The notes under the pieces are model-generated. The model saw only the letters and a program-made list of their open reading frames with translations, had not been told where the DNA came from and ran no database searches. From Candidatus Latescibacterota bacterium (GTDB taxonomy: Bacteria; Latescibacterota; UBA2968; UBA8231), in NCBI GenBank assembly GCA_965217585.1, contig OZ244561.1, positions 5,376,001 through 5,440,000 on the forward strand: a DNA stretch of 64,000 nucleotides. The letters run 5' to 3'. The first letter of the stretch is position 1. Every line of letters begins with the position of its first letter. Both the position numbers and the translations under genes were made by a program. Shown here piece by piece: positions 4,304 to 19,565 of the stretch.

Positions 4304-6043
4304 ATGAAGCGATTTTTTCCATTTATATGCTGGCTGCCCGAACTCGGCCAGCCGGGCGTCTTGCGTGCCGATTTGATCGCGGGCCTCACCGTAGCGACGA
4401 TCCTCGTGCCCCAGGCCATGGCCTACGCCGAGTTGGCGGGGCTGCCGCCGGTCTATGGACTATACGCGGCCTTTCTGCCGCCGGCCGTAGCCGCGCTCTT
4501 TGGCTCTTCCCGGCATTTGTCCACCGGCCCGGTGGCCATAGCTTCGCTCATCAGCGCGACGACCGTGCAAGGGCTTGCTCCCGAGGGCGGCGAGCTATAT
4601 ATCGCCTATTCGCTGGTCTTGGGCTTGCTCGTCGGTCTGATACGGATCGCCTTGGGCGTGTTGCGGTTGGGTTTGCTGATTGACCTGCTGTCCGGCCCGG
4701 TGGTCGTCGGCTTTACCAATGCCGCGGCCTTTATCATCGCCATTTCCCAATTGCACAAGGTATTCGGTGTGGAGCCTCAACAGGGGGGGCATTTGCTGGC
4801 GGCCCTCCGCGTCATCGACGTGGCGCTATTAGAGGTCCATTGGCCGACGCTGGGGATGGCGGCGTTGGCCGGAGGGCTGCTGGTGGTTTTGCGCCGCGTG
4901 CGCTGGGAGCTGCCGAGCATGTTGACGACGCTGCTGGTCACCACACTCGTCTCTTGGCTGGTCGGATTTAGCGGGGAAGTGGTCGGCGAGGTCCCGCGCG
5001 GTTTGCCGCGGCCTTTGGTGCCGGCCCTAGACGCGGAGATCCTATCCCAGCTTTTCGTGGGGGCCTTGACCTTGACACTGCTCGGCCTGATGGAGGCCAT
5101 GGCCATTGCCAAGACCCTTGCCGCACGGACGCGACAGCATCTCGATATCAATCGGGAACTCATCGGCCAAGGCATGGCTAACGTGATCGGCGGGCTTTTC
5201 CAAAGCTATGCGACTTCGGGCTCGTTCTCGCGGTCGGCCGTCAACTACCAAAGCGGGGCACGGACGGGTTTTGCGTCGGTCGTGGCGTCGCTGGTCATCG
5301 CCGCGACGCTGCTCTGGCTCACGCCGCTGTTGTACTATCTGCCGCAAGCGACTCTCGCCGTTGTTATCATCACCGCGGTGTTCGGCTTGGTGCGCATCCA
5401 GCCCCTAGTGACAGCTTGGCGCATTAAATTCCACGACGGGTTGATTGGGGCCGCGACTTTTGTCGGCACGCTGGTCTTGGCACCGGACCTGCACTTGGGG
5501 GTTGGCCTTGGGGTGGGGGCTTCGCTGGTACTCAACTTCTACCGCACCATGCGGCCCCGCGTGGTTCTTCTCGCTCGGCACCTCGACGGCACGATGCGCG
5601 AGAGCGACGCGGGCCTGAGGCCGGATCAGCAGATCGCGATTATGCGCTTTGACGGCCAACTGTACTTTGGGTCTGGCCGTTATTTTGAGGACAAGGTACT
5701 CGAAACGATCGCTTCGGCACCCGAACTGAGGTACTTGATTCTCGATGCAGACGGAATCAATCGGATCGACGCTTCTGGCGAACAGGCGTTGCGCAACGTG
5801 GTTGAACGCCTGCGCGAAGTTGGGCTGGACCTATATTTCACGCGGGCGAAACGGCAGCTTACCGACGCGCTGGAGCGGTCGAGGCTGATGGAGCAGATTG
5901 GCCGCGATCACTTTTTTCGCTGGAATCAACACGCGCTCGAGTTCTTGTGGGCGCGGCTCCATCCCGATTACAAGGCGCGGTGTCCACTCAATGTGCCTCA
6001 CGCCCAAGAGTATAGGGACCGGGAAATCCAGTACTATATATAG
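4304..6043 (+). CDS. SulP/SLC26 family anion transporter with STAS domain
   Basis: DLIAGLTVA..VPQAMAYA, GLYAA, FGSSRHLSTGP, GSFSRSAVN, C-terminal STAS (LYFG...IDASG). Confidence 0.92.
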   Translation: MKRFFPFICWLPELGQPGVLRADLIAGLTVATILVPQAMAYAELAGLPPVYGLYAAFLPPAVAALFGSSRHLSTGPVAIASLISATTVQGLAPEGGELYIAYSLVLGLLVGLIRIALGVLRLGLLIDLLSGPVVVGFTNAAAFIIAISQLHKVFGVEPQQGGHLLAALRVIDVALLEVHWPTLGMAALAGGLLVVLRRVRWELPSMLTTLLVTTLVSWLVGFSGEVVGEVPRGLPRPLVPALDAEILSQLFVGALTLTLLGLMEAMAIAKTLAARTRQHLDINRELIGQGMANVIGGLFQSYATSGSFSRSAVNYQSGARTGFASVVASLVIAATLLWLTPLLYYLPQATLAVVIITAVFGLVRIQPLVTAWRIKFHDGLIGAATFVGTLVLAPDLHLGVGLGVGASLVLNFYRTMRPRVVLLARHLDGTMRESDAGLRPDQQIAIMRFDGQLYFGSGRYFEDKVLETIASAPELRYLILDADGINRIDASGEQALRNVVERLREVGLDLYFTRAKRQLTDALERSRLMEQIGRDHFFRWNQHALEFLWARLHPDYKARCPLNVPHAQEYRDREIQYYI

Positions 6044-6050
6044 AAGAGAA

Positions 6051-6383
6051 TCAGAACCGCTTGGTGTCTGTGGCGGGGGGATCGTCTGTGGCGGGGGGAT
6101 CGTCGGACAGCAACTGGGTGAAGGAGTCGATGCGGGCATCGGCTCTGTTGATCAGCGCGTCTTTGTGCTGGCGGGCGCGGATCACTTCTTCGGCGATATC
6201 GAGCGCGGCCAAGATGGCGATATCGAGCGCGGCTCGGGATCCGACCCTAGCGGCGGTCTGCTGCATCTTCTCGTCGAGATAGGCCGCAGCGAGCCGAATG
6301 TACTCGGGGTCTTGGCCCTCGCTGTTGACGAGCTGATAGGTCTGATTATAGATGCGGACAGCGACAGGTTGTTGTTGTGACAT
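6051..6383 (-). CDS. zapA: Cell division protein ZapA
   Basis: VAVRIYNQTYQL, YIRLAAAYLDEKM, IAILAALDIAEE. Confidence 0.85.
   Translation of the reverse strand: MSQQQPVAVRIYNQTYQLVNSEGQDPEYIRLAAAYLDEKMQQTAARVGSRAALDIAILAALDIAEEVIRARQHKDALINRADARIDSFTQLLSDDPPATDDPPATDTKRF
6066..6104. repeat. 18-bp tandem duplication (GTCTGTGGCGGGGGGATC x2) encoding DDPPAT x2 at the ZapA C-terminus
   Basis: Exact copies at 6066-6083 and 6084-6101. Confidence 0.9.
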
Positions 6384-6475
6384 GAGATTTTGTGAAATAA
6401 AAAGTGGAGACTTCCGCGATCTCCCCTTGTCCCGGAAGCCCCCTCTTTTGCGCGCTAACCACGTGGCAACTAACC

Positions 6476-6504
6476 AATCTATTGGGGTCGAAAATGTTTG
6501 TCAA
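6476..6504 (-). promoter_or_regulatory. sigma70 promoter upstream of zapA
   Basis: Minus strand TTGACA (6504-6499), 17 nt, TAGATT (6481-6476). Confidence 0.7.
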
Positions 6505-6695
6505 CTACATATTGGATATTTTTTTAGAAAAATGAAAAACAAGTTTTCATAAAAATGAGGAACTCGGCCAGTGCGGGAATTTGACGGCCCGTAGAGTGCG
6601 TTCTTAGTTATTGAGATGTCTCTACCAAGTGACCAAAGTGCGCACCAGTCCTCTTTAAGGCGAAGAAGAAGCGCACAATCGATCAATGCCTAAGA

Positions 6696-9551
6696 ATGGA
6701 TAGAAATACATTGGAGATGGCCTTGCAGCAGGCCATCCAAGGCGAAGTGCGCTTTGACGCTGTTTCGCGCATGCTCTACCGCACCGACGCCAGCATCTAC
6801 GAGATGGAGCCCCTAGGGCTGGTCGTGCCCAAAGACGAGGCCGATGTGGTCGCCGTGGTAAAAATTGCCGCCGAGCAGGGGGCGGCTGTATTGCCGCGGG
6901 GCGGCGGTACGAGTTTGGCGGGCCAGTCAGTGGGTGCCGCGGTCCATCTCGACTTTTCCAAATACATGAACCGGATCTTGGAGTTCGACCCGGACGAGTG
7001 CTGGGTTCGGGTCCAGCCAGGCTTGGTGCTCGATGAGCTCAATGCCTACTTGCAGCCCTACGGCCTGATTTTCGCGCCCGATGTATCCACGAGTAGCCGG
7101 GCCAATATCGGCGGGATGATCGGCAACAATTCTTGCGGTGCGCACTCTATTATATACGGCAAGACCATCGACCACGTACAGGAGCTAAAGGTGGTACTGG
7201 CCGATGGCTCGCAAGCGGTATTCGGGCCGCTAGACGACGAGGAGTGCGAACTCCGCGCGAGCTTGGACAGCCTCGAAGGTCGCATTTACCGCGAAGTTCG
7301 CCGCATCGTCCGCGAGCGCGAAACGCAGATCCGCACAGGCTTTCCCCAAGTGATGCGCCGCGTCTCGGGCTACAATCTCGACGAGTTCATCGACGGCGCT
7401 CCCTTTGACCTGAGCAAGCTGGTCGTCGGCTCGGAGGGCACGCTCTGCGCGGTCGTCGAAGCGCGGTTGAACTTAGTGGAGCTGCCCGCGCACAAGGGCT
7501 TGGTGGCCGTCCACTTCCACGACTTAGTCGAGGCCACGGAGGCCAATTTGGCCGCGTTGGAGACCTCGCCAGTCGCCAGCGAGCTGATGGACGACATCCT
7601 GCTCGACCAGACCAAGGACTCCAGCGAACACGCCCCGGGTCGCCGCTTTTTGCGGGGCGACCCAGCCGCCCTGCTCGTCGTCGAGTACTACGCGGACTCG
7701 GCCACCGAGCTGGGCCGCAAGCTGGACGGATTGGAAGAACGATTGCGGGAGCGCGGGATGGGCTACGCTTGGGTGCGGTCCGTCGATCCGGCAGACCAGC
7801 AGGCGATTTGGGGGATACGCAAGGCCGGATTGGGACTTTTGATGGGCATGAAGGGCGACCCCAAACCCCAGCCAGGGGTGGAGGATACCTGCGTCCCGGT
7901 GGCCAAGCTGCCCGAGTACGTCCGCCGGGTGGTCGCGCTGATGGCGGAATTGGGGATTGAGGCCGAATTCTATGGGCATGCGAGCGTCGGCCTGTTGCAC
8001 ATCCGGCCGATCTTCAACCTCAAAGCCCCCGAGGGTATAAAGCTCCTGCGCCAGATCGAGGAGCGGATGAGCGATATGGTGCGCGAATACGGCGGAGCCA
8101 TGTCGGGCGAGCACGGCGATGGCTTGGCCCGCAGCGAGTGGATCGCCAAGATGTTTGGCCCGGAGTTGGTCGCGGCTTTTGTCGAGGTTAAGGACGCCTT
8201 TGATCCACAGGGAATTATGAACCCCGGCAAAATCACTCGCCCCCCTCGGATGGACGAGAACCTGCGCTACCACGAGGATTATCAGACGCCCAAGGTGGAG
8301 ACGTTTTTCAGCTTTAGCGAGGCGGGCGGCTTTCAGGAAGCCGTTGAAATGTGCTCCGGGGTGGGCCACTGTCGCAAAAAGCTGGTGGGCACGATGTGCC
8401 CTTCGTACATGGCGACTTTAGACGAAGAACACACCACCCGCGGCCGGGCCAATGCCCTGCGCGCCGCGCTCGCCGGTACGTTGCCCGACGGCCTGCACAG
8501 CCAAGAGGTCCACCGCGTGATGGACCTCTGCTTGGAGTGCAAAGCCTGCAAGACCGAGTGCCCGTCGAGCGTGGATATGGCCAAGCTCAAGTACGAATTT
8601 CTCGCTCACTACCATCGCGAACACGGCTATCCGTTGCGGTCGCGGCTCTTTGCCGACATAGCCCGCATTAGCCGCTTGGGATCGGCGTTGGCACCGCTGT
8701 CGAATTGGATAGGTCGCAGCGGGTTCAACCGCTGGCTGTTGGATGCGTTTTTGGGCATTGACCGGCGGCGGCGGCTACCGGCCTTTGCCCGCCAGCCGTT
8801 TTCGCGCTGGTTCGCCGGGCGGCGTCCGGCTCGCGGCTCCAAGGGCCGCGTCGTGCTCTTCAACGACACCTTCGTCGAGTACAACGAGCCGGCCATTGGC
8901 ATGGCGGCGACGATCATCTTGGAGCGCACCGGGTACGAGGTTGCCTTGGTCGCCAACAAGGTATGTTGCGGTCGGCCGCTCATATCCAAGGGCTTTCTCG
9001 ACCGCGCTCGTGCCTTGGCACAGCGCAATGTGGAGGTGCTCGCGCCTTGGGCTGCGGAAGGGGTGCCGATCATCGGGCTGGAGCCGAGCTGCGCGTCGGC
9101 TCTCAGCGACGATTACCTAGACTTAGTTGACGATCCACAAAGCCGACTCGTGGCTGAGCAGGTCGTCTTGCTCGAGGACTTTCTCGTCCGCGAGTCTCCG
9201 CTAGATTTGGAGTTTACCTCGACTATCCGCCATATTTTGGTGCATGGCCACTGCCATCAAAAGGCCCTGACGGGAACGGCCGCGACATTGGCCGTGCTCA
9301 ACATGCCGCCCTACTTTCGCGCCGAGGAGATCCCGTCGGGTTGCTGTGGTATGGCCGGTAGTTTCGGCTATGAGAAGGAGCACTTTGAAATATCGCGCGC
9401 GGTGGGGCAGGAGCGGCTTTTTGCCGTGCTAGAAGCGGCAGCGGAGGACGTGGAGATCGCGGCTGTAGGCACCTCGTGCCGCCACCAGATTGCCGATTTT
9501 ACCGGGCGTCGGGCGCGACATTGGGCCGAGATTTTCGTCGAAGCACTATAA
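6696..9551 (+). CDS. FAD-binding and 4Fe-4S oxidoreductase (GlcD/GlcF-type fusion, D-lactate/2-hydroxyacid dehydrogenase-like)
   Basis: PRGGGTSLAGQ, GSEGTL, SGEHGDG, MNPGK, CSGVGHC, CLECKACKTECP, CCG motifs. Confidence 0.9.
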   Translation: MDRNTLEMALQQAIQGEVRFDAVSRMLYRTDASIYEMEPLGLVVPKDEADVVAVVKIAAEQGAAVLPRGGGTSLAGQSVGAAVHLDFSKYMNRILEFDPDECWVRVQPGLVLDELNAYLQPYGLIFAPDVSTSSRANIGGMIGNNSCGAHSIIYGKTIDHVQELKVVLADGSQAVFGPLDDEECELRASLDSLEGRIYREVRRIVRERETQIRTGFPQVMRRVSGYNLDEFIDGAPFDLSKLVVGSEGTLCAVVEARLNLVELPAHKGLVAVHFHDLVEATEANLAALETSPVASELMDDILLDQTKDSSEHAPGRRFLRGDPAALLVVEYYADSATELGRKLDGLEERLRERGMGYAWVRSVDPADQQAIWGIRKAGLGLLMGMKGDPKPQPGVEDTCVPVAKLPEYVRRVVALMAELGIEAEFYGHASVGLLHIRPIFNLKAPEGIKLLRQIEERMSDMVREYGGAMSGEHGDGLARSEWIAKMFGPELVAAFVEVKDAFDPQGIMNPGKITRPPRMDENLRYHEDYQTPKVETFFSFSEAGGFQEAVEMCSGVGHCRKKLVGTMCPSYMATLDEEHTTRGRANALRAALAGTLPDGLHSQEVHRVMDLCLECKACKTECPSSVDMAKLKYEFLAHYHREHGYPLRSRLFADIARISRLGSALAPLSNWIGRSGFNRWLLDAFLGIDRRRRLPAFARQPFSRWFAGRRPARGSKGRVVLFNDTFVEYNEPAIGMAATIILERTGYEVALVANKVCCGRPLISKGFLDRARALAQRNVEVLAPWAAEGVPIIGLEPSCASALSDDYLDLVDDPQSRLVAEQVVLLEDFLVRESPLDLEFTSTIRHILVHGHCHQKALTGTAATLAVLNMPPYFRAEEIPSGCCGMAGSFGYEKEHFEISRAVGQERLFAVLEAAAEDVEIAAVGTSCRHQIADFTGRRARHWAEIFVEAL

Positions 9552-10334: not shown

Positions 10335-11597
10335 ATGGCTGTGACGCAAATCGAGCTGCCCTTTGGCGACTCCCACCTGCAAGTCACCGTGCCTAGTGAG
10401 CACCTGCTAGGCATCGTTCTGCCGAGAGCAGAACAATGCGGCGACGGCGCGGAGCACGCGTTGGTGCGGGATGCGCTGGACCGGCCCGTGGGCACGCCGG
10501 CATTGCGCGCGTTGGTGCGGCCCGGTCAGCAGGTCGCGATTGTCGTCAGCGATATGACCCGGCCCTGCCCAACGGATCGCCTGTTGTCGCCGGTGCTGGA
10601 GGAACTCGCCGCGGCCGGTGTGCCGGACGCCGACGTGACCGTGGTCGTGGCCTTGGGACTGCACCGAGCGCAGACCGCAGCCGAACTGGCCGCTTTAGTG
10701 GGGCCGGCGGTCTATGCTCGGGTGCGGGTCGTGAACCACGATCCAAAAGACGTGGTGCGGCTAGGCGTCACCGCCCGAGGTACGCCCGTGGAACTCTTCC
10801 GTCCCTTGGTAGAGGCCGATGTGCGGATCTGTTTGGGTAACTTGGAGTTTCACTACTTCGCCGGCTTTTCGGGCGGGGCCAAGGCGATCTTGCCCGGCTG
10901 TGCCTCCCCTAGCGCCATAGCGGCCAACCACGGCTTGATGGCCCGGCCCGGCGCGGAGACCGGGCGGCTCGTGGGCAATCCGGTGCGGGAAGATTTAGAA
11001 GAAGGGGCGGCCATGTTGGGGATTGACTTCATCCTCAATGTGATCGTCGACGATCGCCACCGCATTGTCGCCGCCTTTGCCGGGCACGTGCGGGAGGCCC
11101 ACCGCAAAGGGTGCGAGCGAGTGGCCGAGCGCGGGGCCGTGCCCATTGCGCGATGCGCTGATATCGTCCTCGTCAGCGCGGGCGGCTATCCGCTGGATGT
11201 CAATATGTACCAAGCGCAAAAGGCCCTCGACAACGCCGTGCATGCCGTGCGCGAAGGAGGCGTCATCGTCTGGGTGGCTGAATGCCGAGAGGGACTGGGC
11301 AGTGCTACCTTTGCCTCTTGGTTGCAGGAGGCGGATTCGGCCGACGGGATTCTCGCACGCATAGAGCGGGAATTCGTCTTGGGCGGGCACAAGGCCGCAG
11401 CCATTGCCGCGGTGCTGAAAAAGGCCCGCGTGCATTTGGTCTCATCGCTGCCGGCCGAGGCCATCGGCCGCGTCGGTTTAGTGCCCTTTGACGACCTAGA
11501 CCAAGCTGTGGCGGCCGCGCACGAGGTAGTCGGCCCCGAGGCCCGGGTCTGGGCGCTGCCCTATGGAGATTCGGTGTTGCCGCAGGCCGCAGCCTAG
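10335..11597 (+). CDS. larA: Nickel-pincer-dependent lactate racemase family protein (LarA)
   Basis: SDMTRP, GLHR, VNHD, HYFAGFSGGAKAILPG, NH, YQAQKAL. GAGGAG RBS. Confidence 0.9.
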   Translation: MAVTQIELPFGDSHLQVTVPSEHLLGIVLPRAEQCGDGAEHALVRDALDRPVGTPALRALVRPGQQVAIVVSDMTRPCPTDRLLSPVLEELAAAGVPDADVTVVVALGLHRAQTAAELAALVGPAVYARVRVVNHDPKDVVRLGVTARGTPVELFRPLVEADVRICLGNLEFHYFAGFSGGAKAILPGCASPSAIAANHGLMARPGAETGRLVGNPVREDLEEGAAMLGIDFILNVIVDDRHRIVAAFAGHVREAHRKGCERVAERGAVPIARCADIVLVSAGGYPLDVNMYQAQKALDNAVHAVREGGVIVWVAECREGLGSATFASWLQEADSADGILARIEREFVLGGHKAAAIAAVLKKARVHLVSSLPAEAIGRVGLVPFDDLDQAVAAAHEVVGPEARVWALPYGDSVLPQAAA

Positions 11598-12499
11598 GGC
11601 TTTTCACCGGCAAACAAATCGAGCTGTTCGATCTCCTCGTCGGCAAATCCCCCCAACCCTATGCCGAGCAGGCGCGTGCCCAAGTCGCCGGCCTCTGTGT
11701 CCTCTAACAGCTCGCAGGCAGCCGCGAAGATGGCTTGGGCGCGGTCGGTAAAGGCGGCTAAGCGCGATGTGCGCGTCGCGGTACGAAAATCTGGGTAGCG
11801 CACCTGTAGGCTCACGTCGCGCGCTTGCAGTCCTCTGCGCTGCAAACGCCCACAGAGCGCAGCGGCCAACTCGCGCAAGGCCTCGCGCATTTCTTCGCGG
11901 GTGTACATCGGGGTGGCAAAGGAGGTTTCCTCGCGGATTTGGCTAAGCTGCTCGGCCAGGGCGACCGAGTCGTCGTCCCGGCCTTGGGCAAGGTGCCAAA
12001 AGCTACTACCCCGCTGGCCAAAGTGGCGCACGAGTTCGTTCAGCGACACTTGAGCCAGCGAGCCGACGCGCTCTATTTGCATAGCCGCGAGTTGCTGGCG
12101 CGTAATGGCCCCCACGCCGGGGAGCTGGTCGATGGGCACGTCGGCGAGGAAATCTCCTATCTGTTCGGGCAGCACGACCGTTAGGCCATCGGGCCGCTGG
12201 CGCTCCATAGCCAGCCGCGCCAAGAACTTGCTAGGTGCCAACCCCACGGAAACGCTCCAACCTAGCTGCCGCTTGATATCGCTCTTGATCATCTTGGCGA
12301 CACGCATTCCGAAGGGGATGTCGAGCTTATTGTCGGTGACGTCGAGGATGGCGTAGCCGTCGCCCCATTCGATCCAATCGGTGTATTCGCGCAGGAGCAC
12401 GGCGAATTTGGAGCAAGCCTGGGTGTCGCGGCTAGGCGGGCCGCTATCGACTCCAATGTGAACTATCTTGCGGCGTCCGCCAGCCCTAGTGGGACTCAT
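11594..12499 (-). CDS. DinB/Pol IV-like Y-family polymerase homolog lacking the fingers domain and catalytic carboxylates
   Basis: RKIVHI, YTDWIE..AILDVT, SVGLAPSKFLA, PGVG, little-finger region (VRYPDF, RLLGIG), C-terminal QLDLF clamp motif. Confidence 0.8.
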   Translation of the reverse strand: MSPTRAGGRRKIVHIGVDSGPPSRDTQACSKFAVLLREYTDWIEWGDGYAILDVTDNKLDIPFGMRVAKMIKSDIKRQLGWSVSVGLAPSKFLARLAMERQRPDGLTVVLPEQIGDFLADVPIDQLPGVGAITRQQLAAMQIERVGSLAQVSLNELVRHFGQRGSSFWHLAQGRDDDSVALAEQLSQIREETSFATPMYTREEMREALRELAAALCGRLQRRGLQARDVSLQVRYPDFRTATRTSRLAAFTDRAQAIFAAACELLEDTEAGDLGTRLLGIGLGGFADEEIEQLDLFAGEKP

Positions 12500-13451
12500 G
12501 CGACAAAAAAGGCAGGGAAACTACGGTGGCCTGTGCTCCGTCCGCGTCTAGCGCAGTGCCCTCGGCGCAAGCGCTCCGCCGCACATAGGCGAGGGCGATC
12601 GGGCCGAGGCTTGGGGAATGGACCGCAGAAGTGATGCGCCCTACTTCGCGCACTCCATCGCGCAGCGGTTGCCCCGTTGGCGGCAGCTCGGCGGCGGAAA
12701 GCCGCAGCCCCACTAGATGCTGCTTGACTTTGTCGTAGGTGTCTAGGCGAGCGATGACTTCTTGGCCGATATAGCAGCCTTTGTCTAGATGAATGGCGCG
12801 ACCAAGCCCTGCTTCCCAGGGGTTGTAATCTTGGGTCAGTTCTCGCCCGCGCAGGGGAAGACCCTGTTCGACGCGCAGAATTTCCCAGGTCGCCGCCCCT
12901 ATTGGACGAGCACCTGCGGCGGCAAGGCGTTGCCAAAGGGCCGCTACGGCTGCGGGCGGCCCGAAGGTGCGCAGCCCCGGCCCGGCCGTCCGCGCCAGCC
13001 ACAGGCCGTCCGCGACCTGTGGGTCGAGTAGCTGGTGATCCTGAAGTTTTGCCAGATCCGCGTCCAATACGCGGGCGACTAGCTGGGTGGCGTGTGGGCC
13101 GACGAGTTCGAACATGGCCGTCTCGTCTGTGCGGTCTGCCAATTCGAGAGCCTCGGCAAAGATAAAGCGGTCCAGCCAAGCGGGGATCGCAGTGCGCGAA
13201 TCGGGACTGAGGATCAAGGCGGTGACGTCCGGGCCGCGATAGCAGGTGGCGAGGTCGAGAATCCGCGCCCGCTGTTCGATAAAAACGGCTTCGAGGCCGT
13301 GCCCTAGTTGCAGGTTATGGAAGTCGTTGGAGGTCATGCGGTGCAGGAAATCGAGATGGTCGGCACCGCGCGTGTACAAGCGAAACGAGGCTTGCGCGTC
13401 GCGTAGGGCCGCGCTGGCGCGGGCGGCGTGGTATTCGTCGTAATGGGTCAT
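12486..13451 (-). CDS. ygfZ: YgfZ/GcvT-family folate-binding protein
   Basis: KGCYIGQE signature, GADHLDFLHRMTSND, ILRVEQGLP. Confidence 0.85.
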   Translation of the reverse strand: MTHYDEYHAARASAALRDAQASFRLYTRGADHLDFLHRMTSNDFHNLQLGHGLEAVFIEQRARILDLATCYRGPDVTALILSPDSRTAIPAWLDRFIFAEALELADRTDETAMFELVGPHATQLVARVLDADLAKLQDHQLLDPQVADGLWLARTAGPGLRTFGPPAAVAALWQRLAAAGARPIGAATWEILRVEQGLPLRGRELTQDYNPWEAGLGRAIHLDKGCYIGQEVIARLDTYDKVKQHLVGLRLSAAELPPTGQPLRDGVREVGRITSAVHSPSLGPIALAYVRRSACAEGTALDADGAQATVVSLPFLSHESH

Positions 13452-13464
13452 AACGGGCAAGAGG

Positions 13465-16400
13465 CTAGGCGTGCTGCGTCACGGAGAAACGCGAGCCTAA
13501 GTCGGGGTGTTTGGCGACCTCTATTTGCACCGGGAAGGTCGCCTTGAGCTGGTCGAGATGCGTGACGATTAACACCTTTTTGAAATCCTCGCTGATTTTT
13601 TGGATGGCTTCGATGAGTTGCTCCAGCCCCTGCTCATCTTGGGTCCCGAAGCCCTCGTCGATAAAGAGGGTGTGGAGGCGGGTGCCCGAGCGCATGGCCA
13701 GCACCTTGGAAAGCGCGATGCGCAAGGCGAAATTGGTGCGGAATGCCTCGCCCCCAGAATAGAGGTGATAGGAGCGCTCGCCGACCTCGTCGGCGATTTT
13801 GACGTCGAGGGTTTCGCGGGTGCCGCCTTTTTTGAGGTCGCGCAGCGACTCAAAGGCGATTTGGATGCGGTTGTCTGTCAGGCGTGCGAGGATGGCGTTG
13901 GCCTCGTCGGCGATCTGCGGCACGGCGTTTTCAATGATCAGCGCTTGGATCCCATCCTTGCCGAATGCCTTGTCGAGCTGTTGGTAGATCCAGGCCTGTC
14001 GCTGGGTGCCTTGCAGGTCTTGGCGCAACGCGTCCCGTTCCAGCGCTAGTTCGGCGCAGCGCGAGCACAAGGCCTCTAGGTTGCCTCGGCGCTGGAGGAG
14101 TTGATCCCTTTCGACCCGCAGCTTTTCCAAGAGGGCTTGGTTTTCGCCGAGTTGCCTATCGACGTCTTCTAACTCGCCGGCCCGCTTGTCTAATCTTTCC
14201 TGTTCTTTTTTCGCGGCCTGCAATTGTTCCGCTAGAGAGGAGGCTTCGGCCTCGTAGCGCACCCGCGATTCACTGGCCGAAGCACGGCGTTCGCGGGCGT
14301 TTTGCAGGCGCTCGAATTGCCGCGCGCTGTCGCGCAGGTCGTCCTGTTGGTGGCGTAGCTGCTGGTGCTCGGCACCATTGTAACCCAAGGCTGCGAGCTG
14401 GTGCTCGACTTGGCCGAGTTGTTCCCGTTCCTCTTGGGCATAGCGGGCCTCGGCGAGTTGGCGGTCTGCTTGGTCGAGTTGGTTCTGGGCTTCGGCCCGA
14501 TCGCTGTTGAGGCGCTCGGCTTGGCTTTTGGCGTCCTGCAAGCGGGCGTGCTCGGCCTCGACCGGGCGCAACTCGGCGAGCTTTTGGCGCAGCGCCTCGT
14601 GCTCGGCGCTGCTGTAGCCCAATAGCTCTATTTCCCCGGCTAGCTTGTGCAGGCGTTCGCGTTCGCTGGGAGCGTATGATTGGTCGCTGAGTTCGCGGTC
14701 GAGGGCGGCTAGTTGCTCAGCTAGCGACTGGGCCCCAGCGGCCGATTCCCGCAATTGCCCGAGACGAGCTTCCCCGGCGGCCAGTTCTTGATGCACCTGC
14801 TGGAGGGGCGCGATTTCCTCTCCAAGGGCCCTGTAGTGCGTGCGCATCTTTTGCAACAGGTCGTCGAGAGTGGCCAGCTCGCTGCCGAGAACGGCGATGC
14901 GCTCTTGGCGGCGTTCTTCCCGTTGCGAGAGTTCTGCCGCGACCTGCTGGCGATGTTCGGCGTCGAGTGCGCTGCCGCACAATGGGCAATTGGCGTCGTC
15001 GGAACCGGCCAAGGCCTGAGCCTGCTGGCGCTCGTTGGCCAATTCTTCTTCTTCGGCGCGGAGTTTTTGCTGCCGCTCGGTGATCTGGGCATTGAGATCT
15101 CGGCCCTCGTCCTCGAGGCGGTTCCGTTCTTCGACTTTGGCCTGCAATTGGGTCCGTTGCGCTTGCAACTGGTGGATGTGAGCTGCTAGGGTTTCCCCCT
15201 CGGCGCTGGCTCGTTCTAACTGCGCCAATTGCTTGGCTAGTGCTTGGCGCTGGCTTTTGCGGCGCTCTTCTGCGAGAGATAGTTCGTGTTCGAGGCGACG
15301 GCGCTCGCGGAGGAGATCCTCGTAGCGAATCCGCGCCTGCTCTAGGGCTTGGGCCTGCTCGCTAATGGTTTTGAATTGGACGTAGCGGATGGCGATGGTC
15401 TGTTCCCGATTGAGCAAGGCTTGGTGCTCGGCGAGCTGGCGCTGTCGCTCGCCGAGGGTGGCCGCCCAGCGCTCTTGCTGTCGCTCCACTTCTTGGCGCA
15501 CCTGGGCGATTCGCTCTTCTAGCTGGCGGCGGCGGGCCTCTAACTCGCCGTGCTCCTGAGCTTTTTGTTCGATTAGGCCGATTTGAGTGCGAAGCTGGTC
15601 GTAGGTCGCAAAGTCCCGCTCGATGGATTCGGTGGCCGCTAGAATTTCGCCGTCTTGGCGCTGCTGCTCCCGCAGGTTTTCGAGTTCGGCGGAGACCTGT
15701 TGCGCCCGCTCGGCAACGCGCTGCTGCTCCCTCACTAGCTCGGAGACACGCTGGCGGATCTGCGCTAGCTCTAGGCGCTGGGCCTCCAACTCGGCTTGCT
15801 CTTTTTCACGGCTGCTGATTTCGCGGCCGAGTAGAGCGAGGTGATCATCGACGGCGCGCAGCTCGGCTTCGTAGCCTTCTCGCCTAGCCAATTCGGTATC
15901 GAGTTCACCGAGGCGAGTTTGCTGAGCCTCGCTCTGGCGCTGGTGCTCTTGATAGCGGACCCGGGCCATGCCTTGGAGCTGGTCGTAGCGCCCCAAGCCG
16001 AGGATGCGACCGAGTACCTCCTTGCGCTGCCTGGCGTTTTTCTGGGTGAACTCGTCGGCGCGCCCTTGGACGATGAAGGCCGAGTTGACGAAGGTGTCGT
16101 AGTCCATGGATAGGAGCTCGTTGATGCGCCGCTGGGTGGGATTAATGCCCTCGCCTTCGCTGAGAGTGCGGAAGACGCCGTCGCTTTCTACTTGCAGGTC
16201 TAGGGCCGGGACGCCTCGCTTGGTGCGGCGCCAATTGCGGATGACGCGGAAGTGCTTTTCGCCGAGGGCGAAGTCGAAGTCGACCCGCATCTCTCTGGCT
16301 CCGATCCGACACAGTTCTTCGTCGCTGCGGCTTTTGCGAGCTTGGCCCCACAGGGCGTAGGTAATCCCGTCGAGCAGGGCGGATTTGCCGTGGCCGTTGC

Positions 16401-16500
16401 CGCCTGTGAGGCAGGCGACGTGGAACTGGGTAAAGTCGAGTGGTGGCACCTCCTCGCCGTAGCTGAGAAAGTTGCGCAGCGAAAGGGAGAGAGGGATCAT
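13465..16500 (-). CDS. sbcC: SbcC/Rad50 SMC-like ATPase
   Basis: Walker A GGNGHGKS, long coiled coils, zinc hook CPLC, YSGGE signature, Walker B IDEGFGTQD. Confidence 0.92.
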   Translation of the reverse strand: MIPLSLSLRNFLSYGEEVPPLDFTQFHVACLTGGNGHGKSALLDGITYALWGQARKSRSDEELCRIGAREMRVDFDFALGEKHFRVIRNWRRTKRGVPALDLQVESDGVFRTLSEGEGINPTQRRINELLSMDYDTFVNSAFIVQGRADEFTQKNARQRKEVLGRILGLGRYDQLQGMARVRYQEHQRQSEAQQTRLGELDTELARREGYEAELRAVDDHLALLGREISSREKEQAELEAQRLELAQIRQRVSELVREQQRVAERAQQVSAELENLREQQRQDGEILAATESIERDFATYDQLRTQIGLIEQKAQEHGELEARRRQLEERIAQVRQEVERQQERWAATLGERQRQLAEHQALLNREQTIAIRYVQFKTISEQAQALEQARIRYEDLLRERRRLEHELSLAEERRKSQRQALAKQLAQLERASAEGETLAAHIHQLQAQRTQLQAKVEERNRLEDEGRDLNAQITERQQKLRAEEEELANERQQAQALAGSDDANCPLCGSALDAEHRQQVAAELSQREERRQERIAVLGSELATLDDLLQKMRTHYRALGEEIAPLQQVHQELAAGEARLGQLRESAAGAQSLAEQLAALDRELSDQSYAPSERERLHKLAGEIELLGYSSAEHEALRQKLAELRPVEAEHARLQDAKSQAERLNSDRAEAQNQLDQADRQLAEARYAQEEREQLGQVEHQLAALGYNGAEHQQLRHQQDDLRDSARQFERLQNARERRASASESRVRYEAEASSLAEQLQAAKKEQERLDKRAGELEDVDRQLGENQALLEKLRVERDQLLQRRGNLEALCSRCAELALERDALRQDLQGTQRQAWIYQQLDKAFGKDGIQALIIENAVPQIADEANAILARLTDNRIQIAFESLRDLKKGGTRETLDVKIADEVGERSYHLYSGGEAFRTNFALRIALSKVLAMRSGTRLHTLFIDEGFGTQDEQGLEQLIEAIQKISEDFKKVLIVTHLDQLKATFPVQIEVAKHPDLGSRFSVTQHA

Positions 16501-17765
16501 CCGTCGTCTTCGTCGCGTTGGCCAGATTCGAGCTCGCGCTCGAGGTGGAGCGCGTAGTTTTTGAGCTCGGACCGGTGCGTTTGCAGGTCTGGGCTGTTGT
16601 CGATATAGCGGTCGAGGGCGTCGCCTAAGCCGGCCTCCTCGCTGATTTCAGCACGGCGTTGACGCACTTCCGGGGCGAAGCGCGGCTGGATAAAGGCGAC
16701 GTGGAAGGCCGGTTCAAGTGCCTGCCGCACCTGTTGTAAGTCCACCGGCGTGGCGTAGCCTGCGGGCAGGTCGTAGAGGACGCGGACTACGGCGTCTGCC
16801 AGATCGGCCTCGGCGCAGGCCGCGACGAGGCGCTCGGTGGCGTCTTGGCCGTCGAGCACCTTCAGCTTGATGGTCGCAAAGCGCCGGGACGGGACGGGGA
16901 CGAACTCAAAAGTAGTCGCCTGGCCCCTCGGCGCAGTTGCGTCCTCTGCGATACGTACGAGGCAGAAGCCCTTGTCTTCGCCTTCCTCGCCAAAGTCGAT
17001 GCGCTCTAGGCTGCCCGAATAAATCACGGGCGGATGTTGGCCGGGGTTGAGGTCTTGATATTTGTGAATGTGCCCCAAGGCGACATAGTCGTAGGCGGGA
17101 TTGGCAAGGGTGCTGGTGAGCAAAACGGGGTCTTGGCCGATAATAGCGGTGCGTTCGCCCCCAGAATAGACGGCGTCGGCGGCAGCGAGGTGGGCGATGA
17201 GTACGCCCGGCAGCTCGGGGTCGAGCTGCCGGGCGTACTCATCGATCTGGGCTGCGCAGATCTTTTGAATCTCGACGCGGACTTCCTCTAGGGACAGGTC
17301 GCGGTATTCATCGCGGGTGAGTAGGGCATGGCGCGTTGGCCAGGGTAGGCCGGCCACTTGTACCGGGCCATTGGCCGTTTCGATCCGCAGAAGCTCCGGG
17401 CGGCGGATGACATGGGTGCCCTCTAGCTGTAGGGTGCTGAAAATATCGACCGAAGTAGCTTTGCCGAAAGCGCCCGGTGCGTCGTGGTTGCCGACCACCA
17501 GCACGATGGGGATGCGGGCCGCTTGCAGGCGCTGGAGCTGGCGGGCAAAGACGCGCTGGTGGGTCGGGGTCGGATCGCAATTTTTGTACATGTCGCCGGC
17601 GAAGAGGACCAAATCGACCGCCTTTTCAATGGCTAGGTCGAAGACTGCTTCTAGGCTGGCGGCAAAATCTCGAACCCGCGAATGCAGGCCAGAGCTTGGG
17701 TCGAGGCTGCCGTGGTTTTCGATGCCCAAATGCAGATCGGCAAAGTGCAGGAGTGTCAAGGCCAT
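16497..17765 (-). CDS. sbcD: SbcD/Mre11 nuclease
   Basis: ADLHLG, AGD, GNHD, ALGHIH, YSGSLERIDFGE. 4-nt overlap with sbcC. Confidence 0.92.
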   Translation of the reverse strand: MALTLLHFADLHLGIENHGSLDPSSGLHSRVRDFAASLEAVFDLAIEKAVDLVLFAGDMYKNCDPTPTHQRVFARQLQRLQAARIPIVLVVGNHDAPGAFGKATSVDIFSTLQLEGTHVIRRPELLRIETANGPVQVAGLPWPTRHALLTRDEYRDLSLEEVRVEIQKICAAQIDEYARQLDPELPGVLIAHLAAADAVYSGGERTAIIGQDPVLLTSTLANPAYDYVALGHIHKYQDLNPGQHPPVIYSGSLERIDFGEEGEDKGFCLVRIAEDATAPRGQATTFEFVPVPSRRFATIKLKVLDGQDATERLVAACAEADLADAVVRVLYDLPAGYATPVDLQQVRQALEPAFHVAFIQPRFAPEVRQRRAEISEEAGLGDALDRYIDNSPDLQTHRSELKNYALHLERELESGQRDEDDG

Positions 17766-17857
17766 GAGACGCGCGAATGCGTTGTGTTTGGAAAGGGGGC
17801 GGCTCGGTCTGTAAATTTATTAAAAGGAGGGTGGCGAACTTGGGCAAGTCCCTTTGC

Positions 17858-17886
17858 TTGCACCTAGACATCGTTTTTAGTACATT
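17858..17886 (+). promoter_or_regulatory. sigma70 promoter (probably the original greA promoter, now reading into the IS)
   Basis: TTGCAC (17858-17863), 17 nt, TACATT (17881-17886). The -10 hexamer lies in the duplicated target site. Confidence 0.6.
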
Positions 17887-17929
17887 AACTGACGTTACGC
17901 ACCTGTATTTATCTTGGTATATTCCCCGT

Positions 17930-18994
17930 ATGGACAAACACCTTTTAGAATTATATAGCGATTATCTGCTCAGTTCGTTTGGCGCGACGACGGCGACCGG
18001 CTTATCGGCACTGGTGGACGGGGCCTTAAGCCATGATCAAGTCACGCGCTTTCTGTCGGGTGCCGACTATGATGGCCGCACGCTGTGGCAGCAGATCAAG
18101 CCGATGGTACGCGAGATCGAGCAGGACGATGGGGTGCTGATCGTCCCCCCGCGTACGCGGGGGCAAGAAAAGCCGCATACGGATGAAAATGACCTGATCT
18201 GTTGGCATTATGATCACAGCCAAAACCGTTCGGTCAAGGGCCTCAACCTGCTCAACTGTGTGTATCATGCCAGCGGGGTGAGTCTGCCGGTGACGTATGA
18301 GTTGATCCGTAAACCCATTCTCTTTAGCGATGTGCAGACTCGTCAGGTCAAGCGCCGGAGTCTGCACACGAAAAATGAGTTGATGCGCCAGATGTTGCGC
18401 ACCTGGCAACATAATCAGCTCCCCTATCGCTACGTGCTGGCCGATAGCTGGTTTTCGGCCAAAGACAACTTAACCTTCATCCGCAAGACCCTCCACAAAC
18501 ACTTCGTCGTCGCCCTTAAATCCAATAGGACGGTCGCCTTGAGCTATGAACAGAAACGTCAAGGAGCCTTCGCACGCATCGACGCACAACCGTTGCCTGA
18601 ACATCAGCCGGTACTCGGCTGGATCAAAGGATTAGACTTTCCCGTCCTGTTGCTCCGGCAGGTCTTTACAAACCAGGATGGCAGCACCGGCACCTTGTAT
18701 CTGGCGTGTAGTGATCAAACGTGTGATGGAGCCACCATCGAAACAATCTACCAGAAACGGTGGAACGTGGAGACGTTTCATAAAACGCTCAAGTCGCATG
18801 CTGCCTTAGCCAAGTCGCCGACCAAGCGGGTACGCACCCAAAGCAACCACTGTTTTATGGCCCTGTATGCGGCCGGTCGCTTGGAGGGCCTGCGGATCAA
18901 GCACCGACTCAATCACTTCGCGCTGCGATCCCGACTCTATCTCAAGGCCATTCGATATGCCTTCGATGAACTACAAACGCTCAAAACTGCGTAA
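17930..18994 (+). CDS. IS701-like DDE transposase, probably inactivated
   Basis: YSDYLLSSF..TATGLS, SHDQVTRFL, EKPHTDEN..CWHYDH, VLADSWF, RWNVETFHK. The first DD motif reads PPRTRG. Stop codon lies inside the right TIR. Confidence 0.85.
   Translation: MDKHLLELYSDYLLSSFGATTATGLSALVDGALSHDQVTRFLSGADYDGRTLWQQIKPMVREIEQDDGVLIVPPRTRGQEKPHTDENDLICWHYDHSQNRSVKGLNLLNCVYHASGVSLPVTYELIRKPILFSDVQTRQVKRRSLHTKNELMRQMLRTWQHNQLPYRYVLADSWFSAKDNLTFIRKTLHKHFVVALKSNRTVALSYEQKRQGAFARIDAQPLPEHQPVLGWIKGLDFPVLLLRQVFTNQDGSTGTLYLACSDQTCDGATIETIYQKRWNVETFHKTLKSHAALAKSPTKRVRTQSNHCFMALYAAGRLEGLRIKHRLNHFALRSRLYLKAIRYAFDELQTLKTA
18146..18163. repeat. Perfect 18-bp palindrome CCCCCGCGTACGCGGGGG inside the transposase
   Basis: Self-reverse-complementary and occupies exactly six codons (PPRTRG). 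Confidence 0.9.
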
Positions 18995-19019
18995 CGTCAG
19001 TACATTAATTTACTTGAGT

Positions 19020-19055
19020 AGCGGAAGCGGTCAGCGCGCTTCCGCTTTTTGTGTT
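19020..19055 (+). terminator. Terminator-like hairpin in the greA leader
   Basis: AGCGGAAGCG / CGCTTCCGCT 10-bp stem followed by TTTTGTGTT. Confidence 0.65.
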
Positions 19056-19094
19056 AAGTAGCACATGTTGTTCTCTCCTGCTTGAGGCTTGGTA

Positions 19095-19565
19095 ATGAGT
19101 GAAGTATATCTTTCGCGAGAAGGCTACGAAAAACTTCAGGTCGAGTTGAAAGGACTCAAGGAGACCGAACGCCCGGCAGTGCGCCAAGCGCTGCAGCGAG
19201 CGCGGGAGTTTGGCGACCTGTCCGAGAACGCCGAGTATTCAGCAGCTAAAGAAAGGTTGCTCTTCCTAGAGCAGCGCATCGGCAAGCTCGAAGAGACACT
19301 CAGCCGGGCCCGCCTGCTAGAAAACGAGGCGATCCCAGAAGACAAGGTCTATATCGGTGCCACCGTAGAGCTAGAGGACCTCGCGAAGGCGCGGCAGCTC
19401 ACGTACACACTAGTCGCACCCGAGGAAGCGGATTTTGAGGCGGGGAAAATTTCCACGGTTTCGCCGATAGGCAGGGGGTTACTAGGGCACGAAGAAGGAG
19501 AAGAAATCGAGATTGAAGTGCCCGTTGGCAAGCTGCACTACAGGATTGTCAAGATCACGCGCTGA
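19095..19565 (+). CDS. greA: Transcription elongation factor GreA
   Basis: AREFGDLSENAEYSAAKE, ISTVSPIGRGLLG. Confidence 0.95.
   Translation: MSEVYLSREGYEKLQVELKGLKETERPAVRQALQRAREFGDLSENAEYSAAKERLLFLEQRIGKLEETLSRARLLENEAIPEDKVYIGATVELEDLAKARQLTYTLVAPEEADFEAGKISTVSPIGRGLLGHEEGEEIEIEVPVGKLHYRIVKITR

Follow-up and report, generated by a model that had tools for sequence, protein, structure and literature searches.

What is left for a Y-family DNA polymerase homologue to do once its active site and an entire structural domain have disappeared? The question is raised by a gene on the minus strand of a 64,000-nucleotide stretch of the genome of a Candidatus Latescibacterota bacterium (contig OZ244561.1 of assembly GCA_965217585.1, positions 5,376,001–5,440,000), which is called the window here and to which all coordinates refer. 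The gene (11594–12499; 301 codons plus the stop) encodes a fingerless, catalytically dead homologue of DinB (Pol IV) and lies at the end of a row of genes for SbcD, SbcC and a YgfZ-type protein. An earlier interpretation made without database searches (the sequence-only reading) had proposed that the four genes form a repair module in which a dead DinB, outside any imuA-imuB-dnaE2 system, may tether SbcCD or another polymerase to the sliding clamp. Its assignment of the 301-residue open reading frame (ORF) to DinB stands, as Pfam and NCBIfam matches, alignment, an AlphaFold2 model, Foldseek comparison and a phylogenetic tree all agree on it.

The fingerless gene is kept by purifying selection and is not decaying. 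An intact copy with no internal stop is present in all 30 relatives from the same genus, at 52–90% protein identity, and the frame is still intact where synonymous divergence within the genus reaches ~1.5. Constraint was measured as the ratio of nonsynonymous to synonymous divergence (dN/dS; median pairwise Nei–Gojobori values among 18 genus genomes, all pairs with dS < 1). The fingerless dinB has a dN/dS of 0.228, against 0.205 for sbcC, 0.175 for ygfZ, 0.136 for sbcD, 0.120 for the neighbouring larA and 0.046 for nusG; five deeper members of the genus give 0.24 for the fingerless gene. The clamp-type motif EQLDLF has undergone no amino-acid change among the 18 genomes (dN 0). Because the gene is intact in 30 of 30 relatives, evolves at a ratio close to that of sbcC and retains its clamp motif unchanged, decay, one of the objections that the sequence-only reading had foreseen, can be set aside. 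A protein that is under selection and has kept its clamp hook, while the fingers and the catalytic residues are gone, probably performs a function different from DNA synthesis.

The losses and the retained parts were defined by aligning the protein with its relatives (alignments A1 and A6) and with solved DinB structures. The first palm strand, KIVHIGVDS (residues 11–19; 12443–12469), corresponds to a strand at residues 12–19 of the AlphaFold2 model and has a dN/dS of 0.26. It contains motif I (residues 14–19), which reads HIGVDS where relatives have HVDMDA, so that the first catalytic aspartate is replaced by glycine. At the site of the fingers there is only a short, variable linker (residues 20–33; 12401–12442), which is marked by gaps in the alignments, a dN/dS of 0.73 and a predicted local distance difference test (pLDDT) score of 67. 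Residue 32 of the fingerless protein is the counterpart of residue 87 of E. coli DinB in the alignment; ~66 residues of the fingers, a domain inserted in the palm of active Y-family polymerases, have thus given way to a linker of ~14, and the protein is 301 residues long compared with 365–368 for its sister proteins. The rest of the palm (residues 34–100; 12200–12400) is the most constrained region, with a dN/dS of 0.127, and includes a degenerate motif III, WGDGYAILDV (residues 45–54; 12338–12367). Here, IEWGDGYAILDV stands in place of the IEPxxLDEAYLDV of relatives, and the Asp–Glu pair has been lost. All three catalytic carboxylates, the metal ligands of an active Y-family enzyme, are consequently absent. 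Within the clade the former metal-ligand positions vary (GDGY, GDDY, TDDH, AADAV, AHQAA and others), and such free variation is expected after catalysis has been lost.

The remainder of the Y-family fold is present. The thumb (residues 101–178; 11966–12199; PF21999 and PF11798; dN/dS 0.21) carries a helix-hairpin-helix with the motif LPGVG, in which G128 and G130 are invariant. The little finger, or polymerase-associated domain (residues 188–284; 11648–11938; dN/dS 0.26), matches PF11799 from position 3 to 109 of 109 with an E value of 7.5e-26, and the AlphaFold2 model places strands and helices across residues 188–283. Beyond it, EQLDLF (residues 291–296; 11612–11629) conforms to the QxxLF-type clamp-motif consensus given in section 16 of PMC12926913 and is predicted to bind the beta clamp; all 35 rows of alignment A6 share Q292, L293, L295 and F296. 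These findings bear out the earlier description of the gene, which had noted degenerate motifs I and III, the absence of ~60–65 fingers residues and an otherwise intact thumb, little finger and QLDLF in a frame free of stops and frameshifts.

Profile and structure comparisons give the same picture. The PF00817 match covers only profile positions 76–148 of 148. The best NCBIfam model, NF002677, is matched from position 91 to 347 of 357 with 177.1 bits, where the cut-off is 256; each of the ten NCBIfam models listed is likewise matched below its own cut-off, and the protein is not a DinB equivalog by that standard. The models listed are those of DinB and UmuC only, and the best whole-protein models are all DinB. 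The AlphaFold2 model, built from a 62-row alignment, has a mean pLDDT of 88.8 and loses confidence only towards its termini and across the linker, and its best Foldseek matches in the PDB are DinB, Dpo4, pol kappa and Rev1 (E values from 8e-28 to 1e-18). A detached piece encoding the fingers was sought by tblastn with the N-termini of six sister proteins against the whole genome, and none was found (best E value 0.39).

The same architecture recurs among clustered proteins. A search of 5.8 billion clusters returned ~80 protein clusters of 293–314 residues and 51–100% identity, and all 22 clusters that were aligned share the architecture, as does one of 353 residues. The latter (P0070) carries a Pro-, Thr- and Gln-rich insert of ~50 residues exactly at the former fingers site; the linker site tolerates big changes in length. 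Two more listed clusters, of 193 and 261 residues, are shorter pieces, and P0074 (304 residues) belongs to the full-length type and is truncated at the N-terminus. Fingerless copies occur in the records of Candidatus Latescibacterota bacterium metagenome-assembled genomes (MAGs; L071–L074), and some of the protein clusters are named Gemmatimonadetes or Latescibacteria MAG.

Fingers loss has a single origin inside DinB. In a quick maximum-likelihood tree of 68 proteins, which contained no ImuB references, the 23 fingerless rows, P0070 among them, form one branch with a Shimodaira–Hasegawa-like approximate likelihood ratio (SH-aLRT) support of 99. This branch is nested among DinBs from sister genera in the same bacterial family, which are full-length and have intact motifs. 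The chromosomal setting is also the same: the fingerless gene groups with DinB orthologues and occupies the orthologous locus, flanked, as is the full-length DinB of sister genera, by ygfZ upstream and by larA, orf206 and a glcD-like gene downstream. In a library of 1.84 billion representative proteins (50% clustering), one fingerless representative, P0121 (474 bits), was found among the 150 best matches, and the next match is a full-length sister. Short matches (~260–320 residues) were considered as independently arisen fingerless forms and rejected, as the eleven aligned besides P0121 are cut at the N-terminus and keep LDEAYLDV.

The order of the losses may be preserved in a further group of proteins. 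Five full-length metagenomic DinB relatives (P0090 and P0123–P0126) stand beside the fingerless clade with an SH-aLRT of 95, on long branches (0.5–1.2) that make their placement unsure. Like the fingerless form, they keep QLDLF and have degenerate catalytic motifs; unlike it, they retain the fingers, and each lacks a different subset of the catalytic residues, in motif I and/or motif III. Since full-length relatives show partly eroded active sites, these sequences hint that catalysis became dispensable first and that the fingers domain was lost second.

The polymerase complement of the genome bears on what such a protein could serve. The 7.32-Mb genome, in one contig and with an estimated completeness of 94.6%, has one match to PF00817, the fingerless gene itself, and one to Pol III alpha (PF07733); LexA is present, and a search for a family-B polymerase (PF00136) gave no match. 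In keeping with the claim that the gene lies outside an imuA-imuB-dnaE2 system, neither a second polymerase gene nor DnaE2 was seen in the 19-kb loci. Exactly one Pol III alpha match is found in 29 of the 30 genus relatives and two in none; the 30th, a genome that is 58% complete, has no match. Outside the genus, Pol III alpha is matched two or three times in 31 of 45 genomes from other genera of the family, and in several of these (G032, G140, G136 and G167 among them) the extra Pol III alpha lies ~2 kb from a weak PF00817 match, as would be the case for an imuB-dnaE2 pair. DinB catalysis and the DnaE2 system have thus, it seems, both disappeared from the genus.

Among known systems, DinB/Pol IV (the PolY-core group) is the closest in sequence, fold and descent, and the fingerless gene shares with it the thumb, the little finger, the C-terminal clamp motif and, in sister genera, the same place on the chromosome. 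It differs from DinB in having no fingers and no catalytic carboxylates, in scoring below every DinB equivalog cut-off and in evolving ~2 times faster relative to the neighbouring ygfZ. From ImuB it differs in having been derived from DinB within one bacterial family; ImuB, moreover, keeps its fingers region. The two are alike as inactive Y-family homologues with a clamp-binding motif, and ImuB is thought to act as a scaffold, according to passages of PMC6511836 and PMC12926913. As ImuB is defined there, the fingerless protein is unlike it in lacking the C-terminal extension (ImuB-C) and any room for a RecA-NT-like motif; it is also not encoded beside imuA or dnaE2, and its genome has no DnaE2.

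Timinskas and Venclovas describe inactive groups of PolY proteins, namely ImuB1, ImuB2, scDinB2-like, gbDinB2-like and Kyrpidia-type, and passages of PMC6511836 and PMC12926913 tie all of these to DnaE2, ImuB-C and/or RecA. Other PolY proteins without catalytic residues are said to be "dispersed or form diffuse groups" (PMC12926913, section 16). The fingerless protein resembles the scDinB2-like, gbDinB2-like and Kyrpidia-type proteins in being PolY-core-related and without catalytic residues; unlike them, it has no DnaE2, ImuB-C or RecA partner and has lost a whole domain as well. Loss of the fingers is not mentioned in the corresponding passages of PMC6511836 and PMC12926913, whose further supplements may bear on the point; no 'Latescibacter' entry was present in the part of the PMC12926913 supplement that was searched, and a literature search for a polymerase lacking fingers gave nothing on polymerases, judged by titles. 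An inactive, DinB-derived Y-family homologue that is independent of DnaE2 and misses a domain thus appears to be a form not previously described.

The neighbourhood of the gene is compact, as the sequence-only reading had noted. Four genes run head to tail on the minus strand in the order sbcD, sbcC, ygfZ and the dinB-like gene. The sbcD gene (16497–17765) encodes a 422-residue Mre11-type nuclease (PF00149; TIGR00619 at 163 bits, cut-off 77.65) and overlaps sbcC by 4 nt. The sbcC gene (13465–16500) encodes a 1011-residue Rad50-type ATPase with PF13476, PF13558 and the PF04423 zinc hook; it aligns with TIGR00618 from end to end (1–1002) at 304 bits, under the 478.5 cut-off, and the adjacent phosphoesterase and zinc-hook ATPase together identify the pair as SbcCD. 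After a spacing of 4 nt follows the gene for a 324-residue YgfZ/CAF17-type folate-binding protein (12486–13460), in which the GcvT-type fold (PF01571 and PF08669) is combined with the YgfZ signature domain (TIGR03317 at 89.1 bits, cut-off 49) and which falls under GcvT's own cut-offs. This gene overlaps the dinB-like gene by 14 nt. Genome-wide there are six PF01571 matches, of which the gene upstream of dinB is the sole YgfZ-like one; GcvT and two large proteins of oxidase or dehydrogenase type account for the other strong matches. The YgfZ-type ORF starts with TTG (13451–13460), and an ATG lies three codons further in; several relatives' ORFs start at that ATG (321 residues), so the true start may be the ATG.

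On the other side, larA (10335–11597, plus strand) converges on the dinB-like gene, and the two stop codons overlap by 4 nt (11594–11597), so that no terminator could fit between the genes. Scans of 11000–19500 found 1 promoter-like site where 1.5 were expected, and 14 terminator-like sites against an expectation of 9.2 ± 3.6. In the spacer between greA and sbcD, ~124 nt upstream of the sbcD start, there is an insertion of ~1.1 kb (17889–18998) with a DDE transposase (PF13546 and PF01609). Its junctions carry ~10 nt that are apparently duplicated, and the genome has two more copies at other sites, with 87% identity. The spacer is unbroken and ~216 nt long in L033, the single relative compared base by base, and the greA–sbcD distance is ~190–220 nt in the 20 genus loci with both genes. 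The insertion may cut the operon off from its promoter, in this genome only.

Long flanks were examined for 22 of the 30 genus relatives, and the tightly spaced order sbcC-ygfZ-dinB is present in all 22; sbcD is seen in 21, the remaining contig beginning within sbcC. In sister genera, the same place is held in 25 of 25 loci by a full-length DinB with DMDAFY and DEAYLDV intact. Nine sister-genus loci (L057, L154, L159, L160, L162, L166, L172, L174 and L175) show the complete order sbcD-sbcC-ygfZ-dinB with a full-length, motif-intact DinB; among the 25 loci, which are short, 8 include sbcC on the upstream side of ygfZ. Since active DinBs occupy the same place, the order must be older than the loss of the fingers. 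It is also variable: greA abuts ygfZ with no sbcCD between them in L163, L167, L169, L171 and L173, and no sbcCD match was found at the 19-kb sister locus L052. The constant neighbour is ygfZ: it immediately precedes dinB in all 22 genus loci and in 24 of the 25 from sister genera, the one exception being cut by a contig end. At the more distant DinB loci L176–L178, two of them from genomes of other families of the phylum and one from another genus of the same family, none of these neighbours was found. Linkage to sbcCD has therefore been inherited, varies among the loci and is no special property of the inactive form.

Three of these loci have peculiarities of their own. In L048 (G009; 11015–14046) and L054 (G023; 5417–8447), sbcC matches in two overlapping or abutting pieces, which suggests a frameshift or an assembly error. 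The full-length-type DinB of L174 (G135:C2:4038529-4042422; open frame of 321 residues) matches the query only to about residue 300 and continues with unrelated C-terminal residues, which may have disrupted the little finger and the clamp motif.

Several explanations compete for the retention of this protein. That it is a non-functional relic, a recently broken gene in drift, is barely credible: the loss of the catalytic residues together with a whole domain, and a constraint weaker than that on active DinB, would fit, but drift would not leave the frame intact in every relative at the synonymous divergence reached in the genus, with dN/dS at 0.2–0.24 and the clamp motif unchanged. It is very improbable that the protein is still an enzyme, with a palm that performs another nucleotidyl-transfer or hydrolytic reaction through other residues. 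The palm remnant is indeed the most constrained region, and D18, E44, D53 and K91 are invariant across the fingerless clade; however, active DinBs too have D53 and K91 without exception and D18 and E44 with few exceptions, so these are retained rather than new residues, and the metal-ligand positions vary freely in a protein that has no fingers to hold a substrate. Somewhat less remote, yet still unlikely, is a scaffold that works like ImuB and brings DnaE1 or Pol I to the clamp at sites of damage without ImuA or DnaE2. The combination of lost catalysis with a retained clamp motif is that of ImuB (passages of PMC6511836 and PMC12926913), and a protein partner could contact the strongly constrained palm surface (dN/dS 0.127). 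The ImuB-type C-terminal extension is absent, however: only 7 residues separate the little finger from the clamp motif, and the protein ends 5 residues past it, which leaves no space for the RecA-NT motif found in the absolute majority of Y-family groups (PMC12926913, section 16). Nor is there a DnaE2 or second polymerase gene nearby.

The operon suggests two further explanations, both improbable. In one, the protein is the adaptor that tethers SbcCD to the sliding clamp, and the four genes are a dedicated repair module. The conserved, tightly spaced gene order in the genus and the invariant clamp motif speak for it, as does the link between Pol IV and break repair in E. coli described in PMC7470938; against it, the linkage predates the inactive form, being shared with motif-intact DinB in sister genera, and sbcCD is missing from the locus in at least six sister genomes, where ygfZ and dinB stay paired. 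The module that the sequence-only reading saw as built around the dead protein is weakened accordingly and, by the history of the locus, is unlikely; tethering of SbcCD or of another polymerase is speculation. A search for DinB together with SbcCD found no paper on a partnership, judged by titles. In the other explanation, given about the same low weight, YgfZ and DinB are a translationally coupled functional unit, for example in folate or Fe–S chemistry or in replication control at clamp-bound DNA, and the dead DinB keeps only the part needed for it. The near-universal adjacency of the two genes in the genus and its sisters and their overlapping reading frames in the window favour such a pair, and PMC13036160 connects YgfZ of E. 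coli with how replication initiation is controlled. The sole YgfZ-like gene of the genome is probably a housekeeping copy, however, and may be a bystander, and the pairing is not seen at L176–L178. The only literature match for YgfZ together with DinB concerns GC content, judged by its title, and a complex prediction for YgfZ and the fingerless DinB, both supplied as alignments, gave no support, a result that counts neither way on binding.

On balance, the conserved motifs argue that the fingerless protein probably, though by no means certainly, lacks catalytic activity and binds both clamp and DNA, independently of DnaE2. It consists of a Pol IV core from which the fingers domain has been excised in frame and the three metal-binding carboxylates have been lost. 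It would be docked onto the beta sliding clamp by the EQLDLF hook, with duplex DNA held by its thumb and little finger where a primer ends or a gap lies; it would hold neither a template base nor a nucleotide and, having no fingers and no active site, would not extend the DNA. By occupying clamps and DNA ends at gaps, at forks that have stalled or on intermediates of break repair, it may act as a brake, keep a place or mediate a hand-off, in a structural role that would already have been present in the ancestral active DinB. As the lineage has no recognised translesion polymerase left, this role would not be the recruitment of DnaE2, as in ImuB. Precedents for Pol IV roles other than lesion bypass at forks are offered by PMC7470938, on a RecB-dependent role in break repair, and by PMC4330395, on the slowing of fork progression in the SOS response.

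Several observations weigh against a clamp- and DNA-binding protein of this kind. Clamp binding and DNA binding are both predicted from conserved motifs. The fingerless dinB is less constrained than its active counterparts: full-length dinB in three sister genera has a dN/dS of 0.11–0.15, or ~0.4–0.6 of the value for ygfZ in the same genomes, compared with 0.20–0.24, or ~1.15–1.6 of ygfZ, for the fingerless gene. Furthermore, the tightest constraint falls on the palm remnant and not on the little finger or thumb, which simple clamp and DNA binding does not account for; it hints at a further partner or activity on the palm surface. A remnant PF00817 match is the only one in 28 of the 30 genus relatives, but G016 and G023 carry a second, full-length match besides the fingerless gene, so that the absence of any other Y-family gene does not hold for the whole genus. 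These two genomes are deep members of the genus, and their full-length matches (G016:C23:31703-32134 and G023:C15:14129-14560) score 140 and 132 bits in frames of 498 and 571 residues. Contigs from RNA libraries add little: contigs identical to the window inside the gene occur in two libraries (two runs of one study) labelled sponge metagenome, and a 2672-nt contig from a related strain (~93% alike) in a second study runs from larA across the complete gene into the 3′ part of ygfZ. Such contigs may hold DNA and attest presence in the library only, not transcription; the parts of the gene that they leave uncovered carry no meaning.

A wider reading is possible, and we offer it more tentatively. 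DinB may have a selectable non-catalytic role at the clamp, in replisome or gap management or in break repair with YgfZ and/or SbcCD, for which the fingers would be dispensable. The genus would then be a natural separation-of-function experiment, in which all recognised translesion polymerases (active DinB, ImuB–DnaE2 and Pol II) have been discarded and the DinB shell has been kept.

Inactive Y-family homologues have so far been read as parts of the DnaE2 mutasome, and here is one without DnaE2, ImuA or ImuB-C, in a form that lacks a whole structural domain and is the sole Y-family gene in most genomes of its genus. Should it bind the clamp and DNA as proposed, nature would have isolated the non-catalytic side of Pol IV, which in E. 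coli, to our knowledge, is accessible only through engineered dead mutants. The fingerless protein, as a putative clamp binder, would offer structural work a minimal clamp-binding Y-family core, and the lineage that carries it seems to live without any known translesion polymerase.

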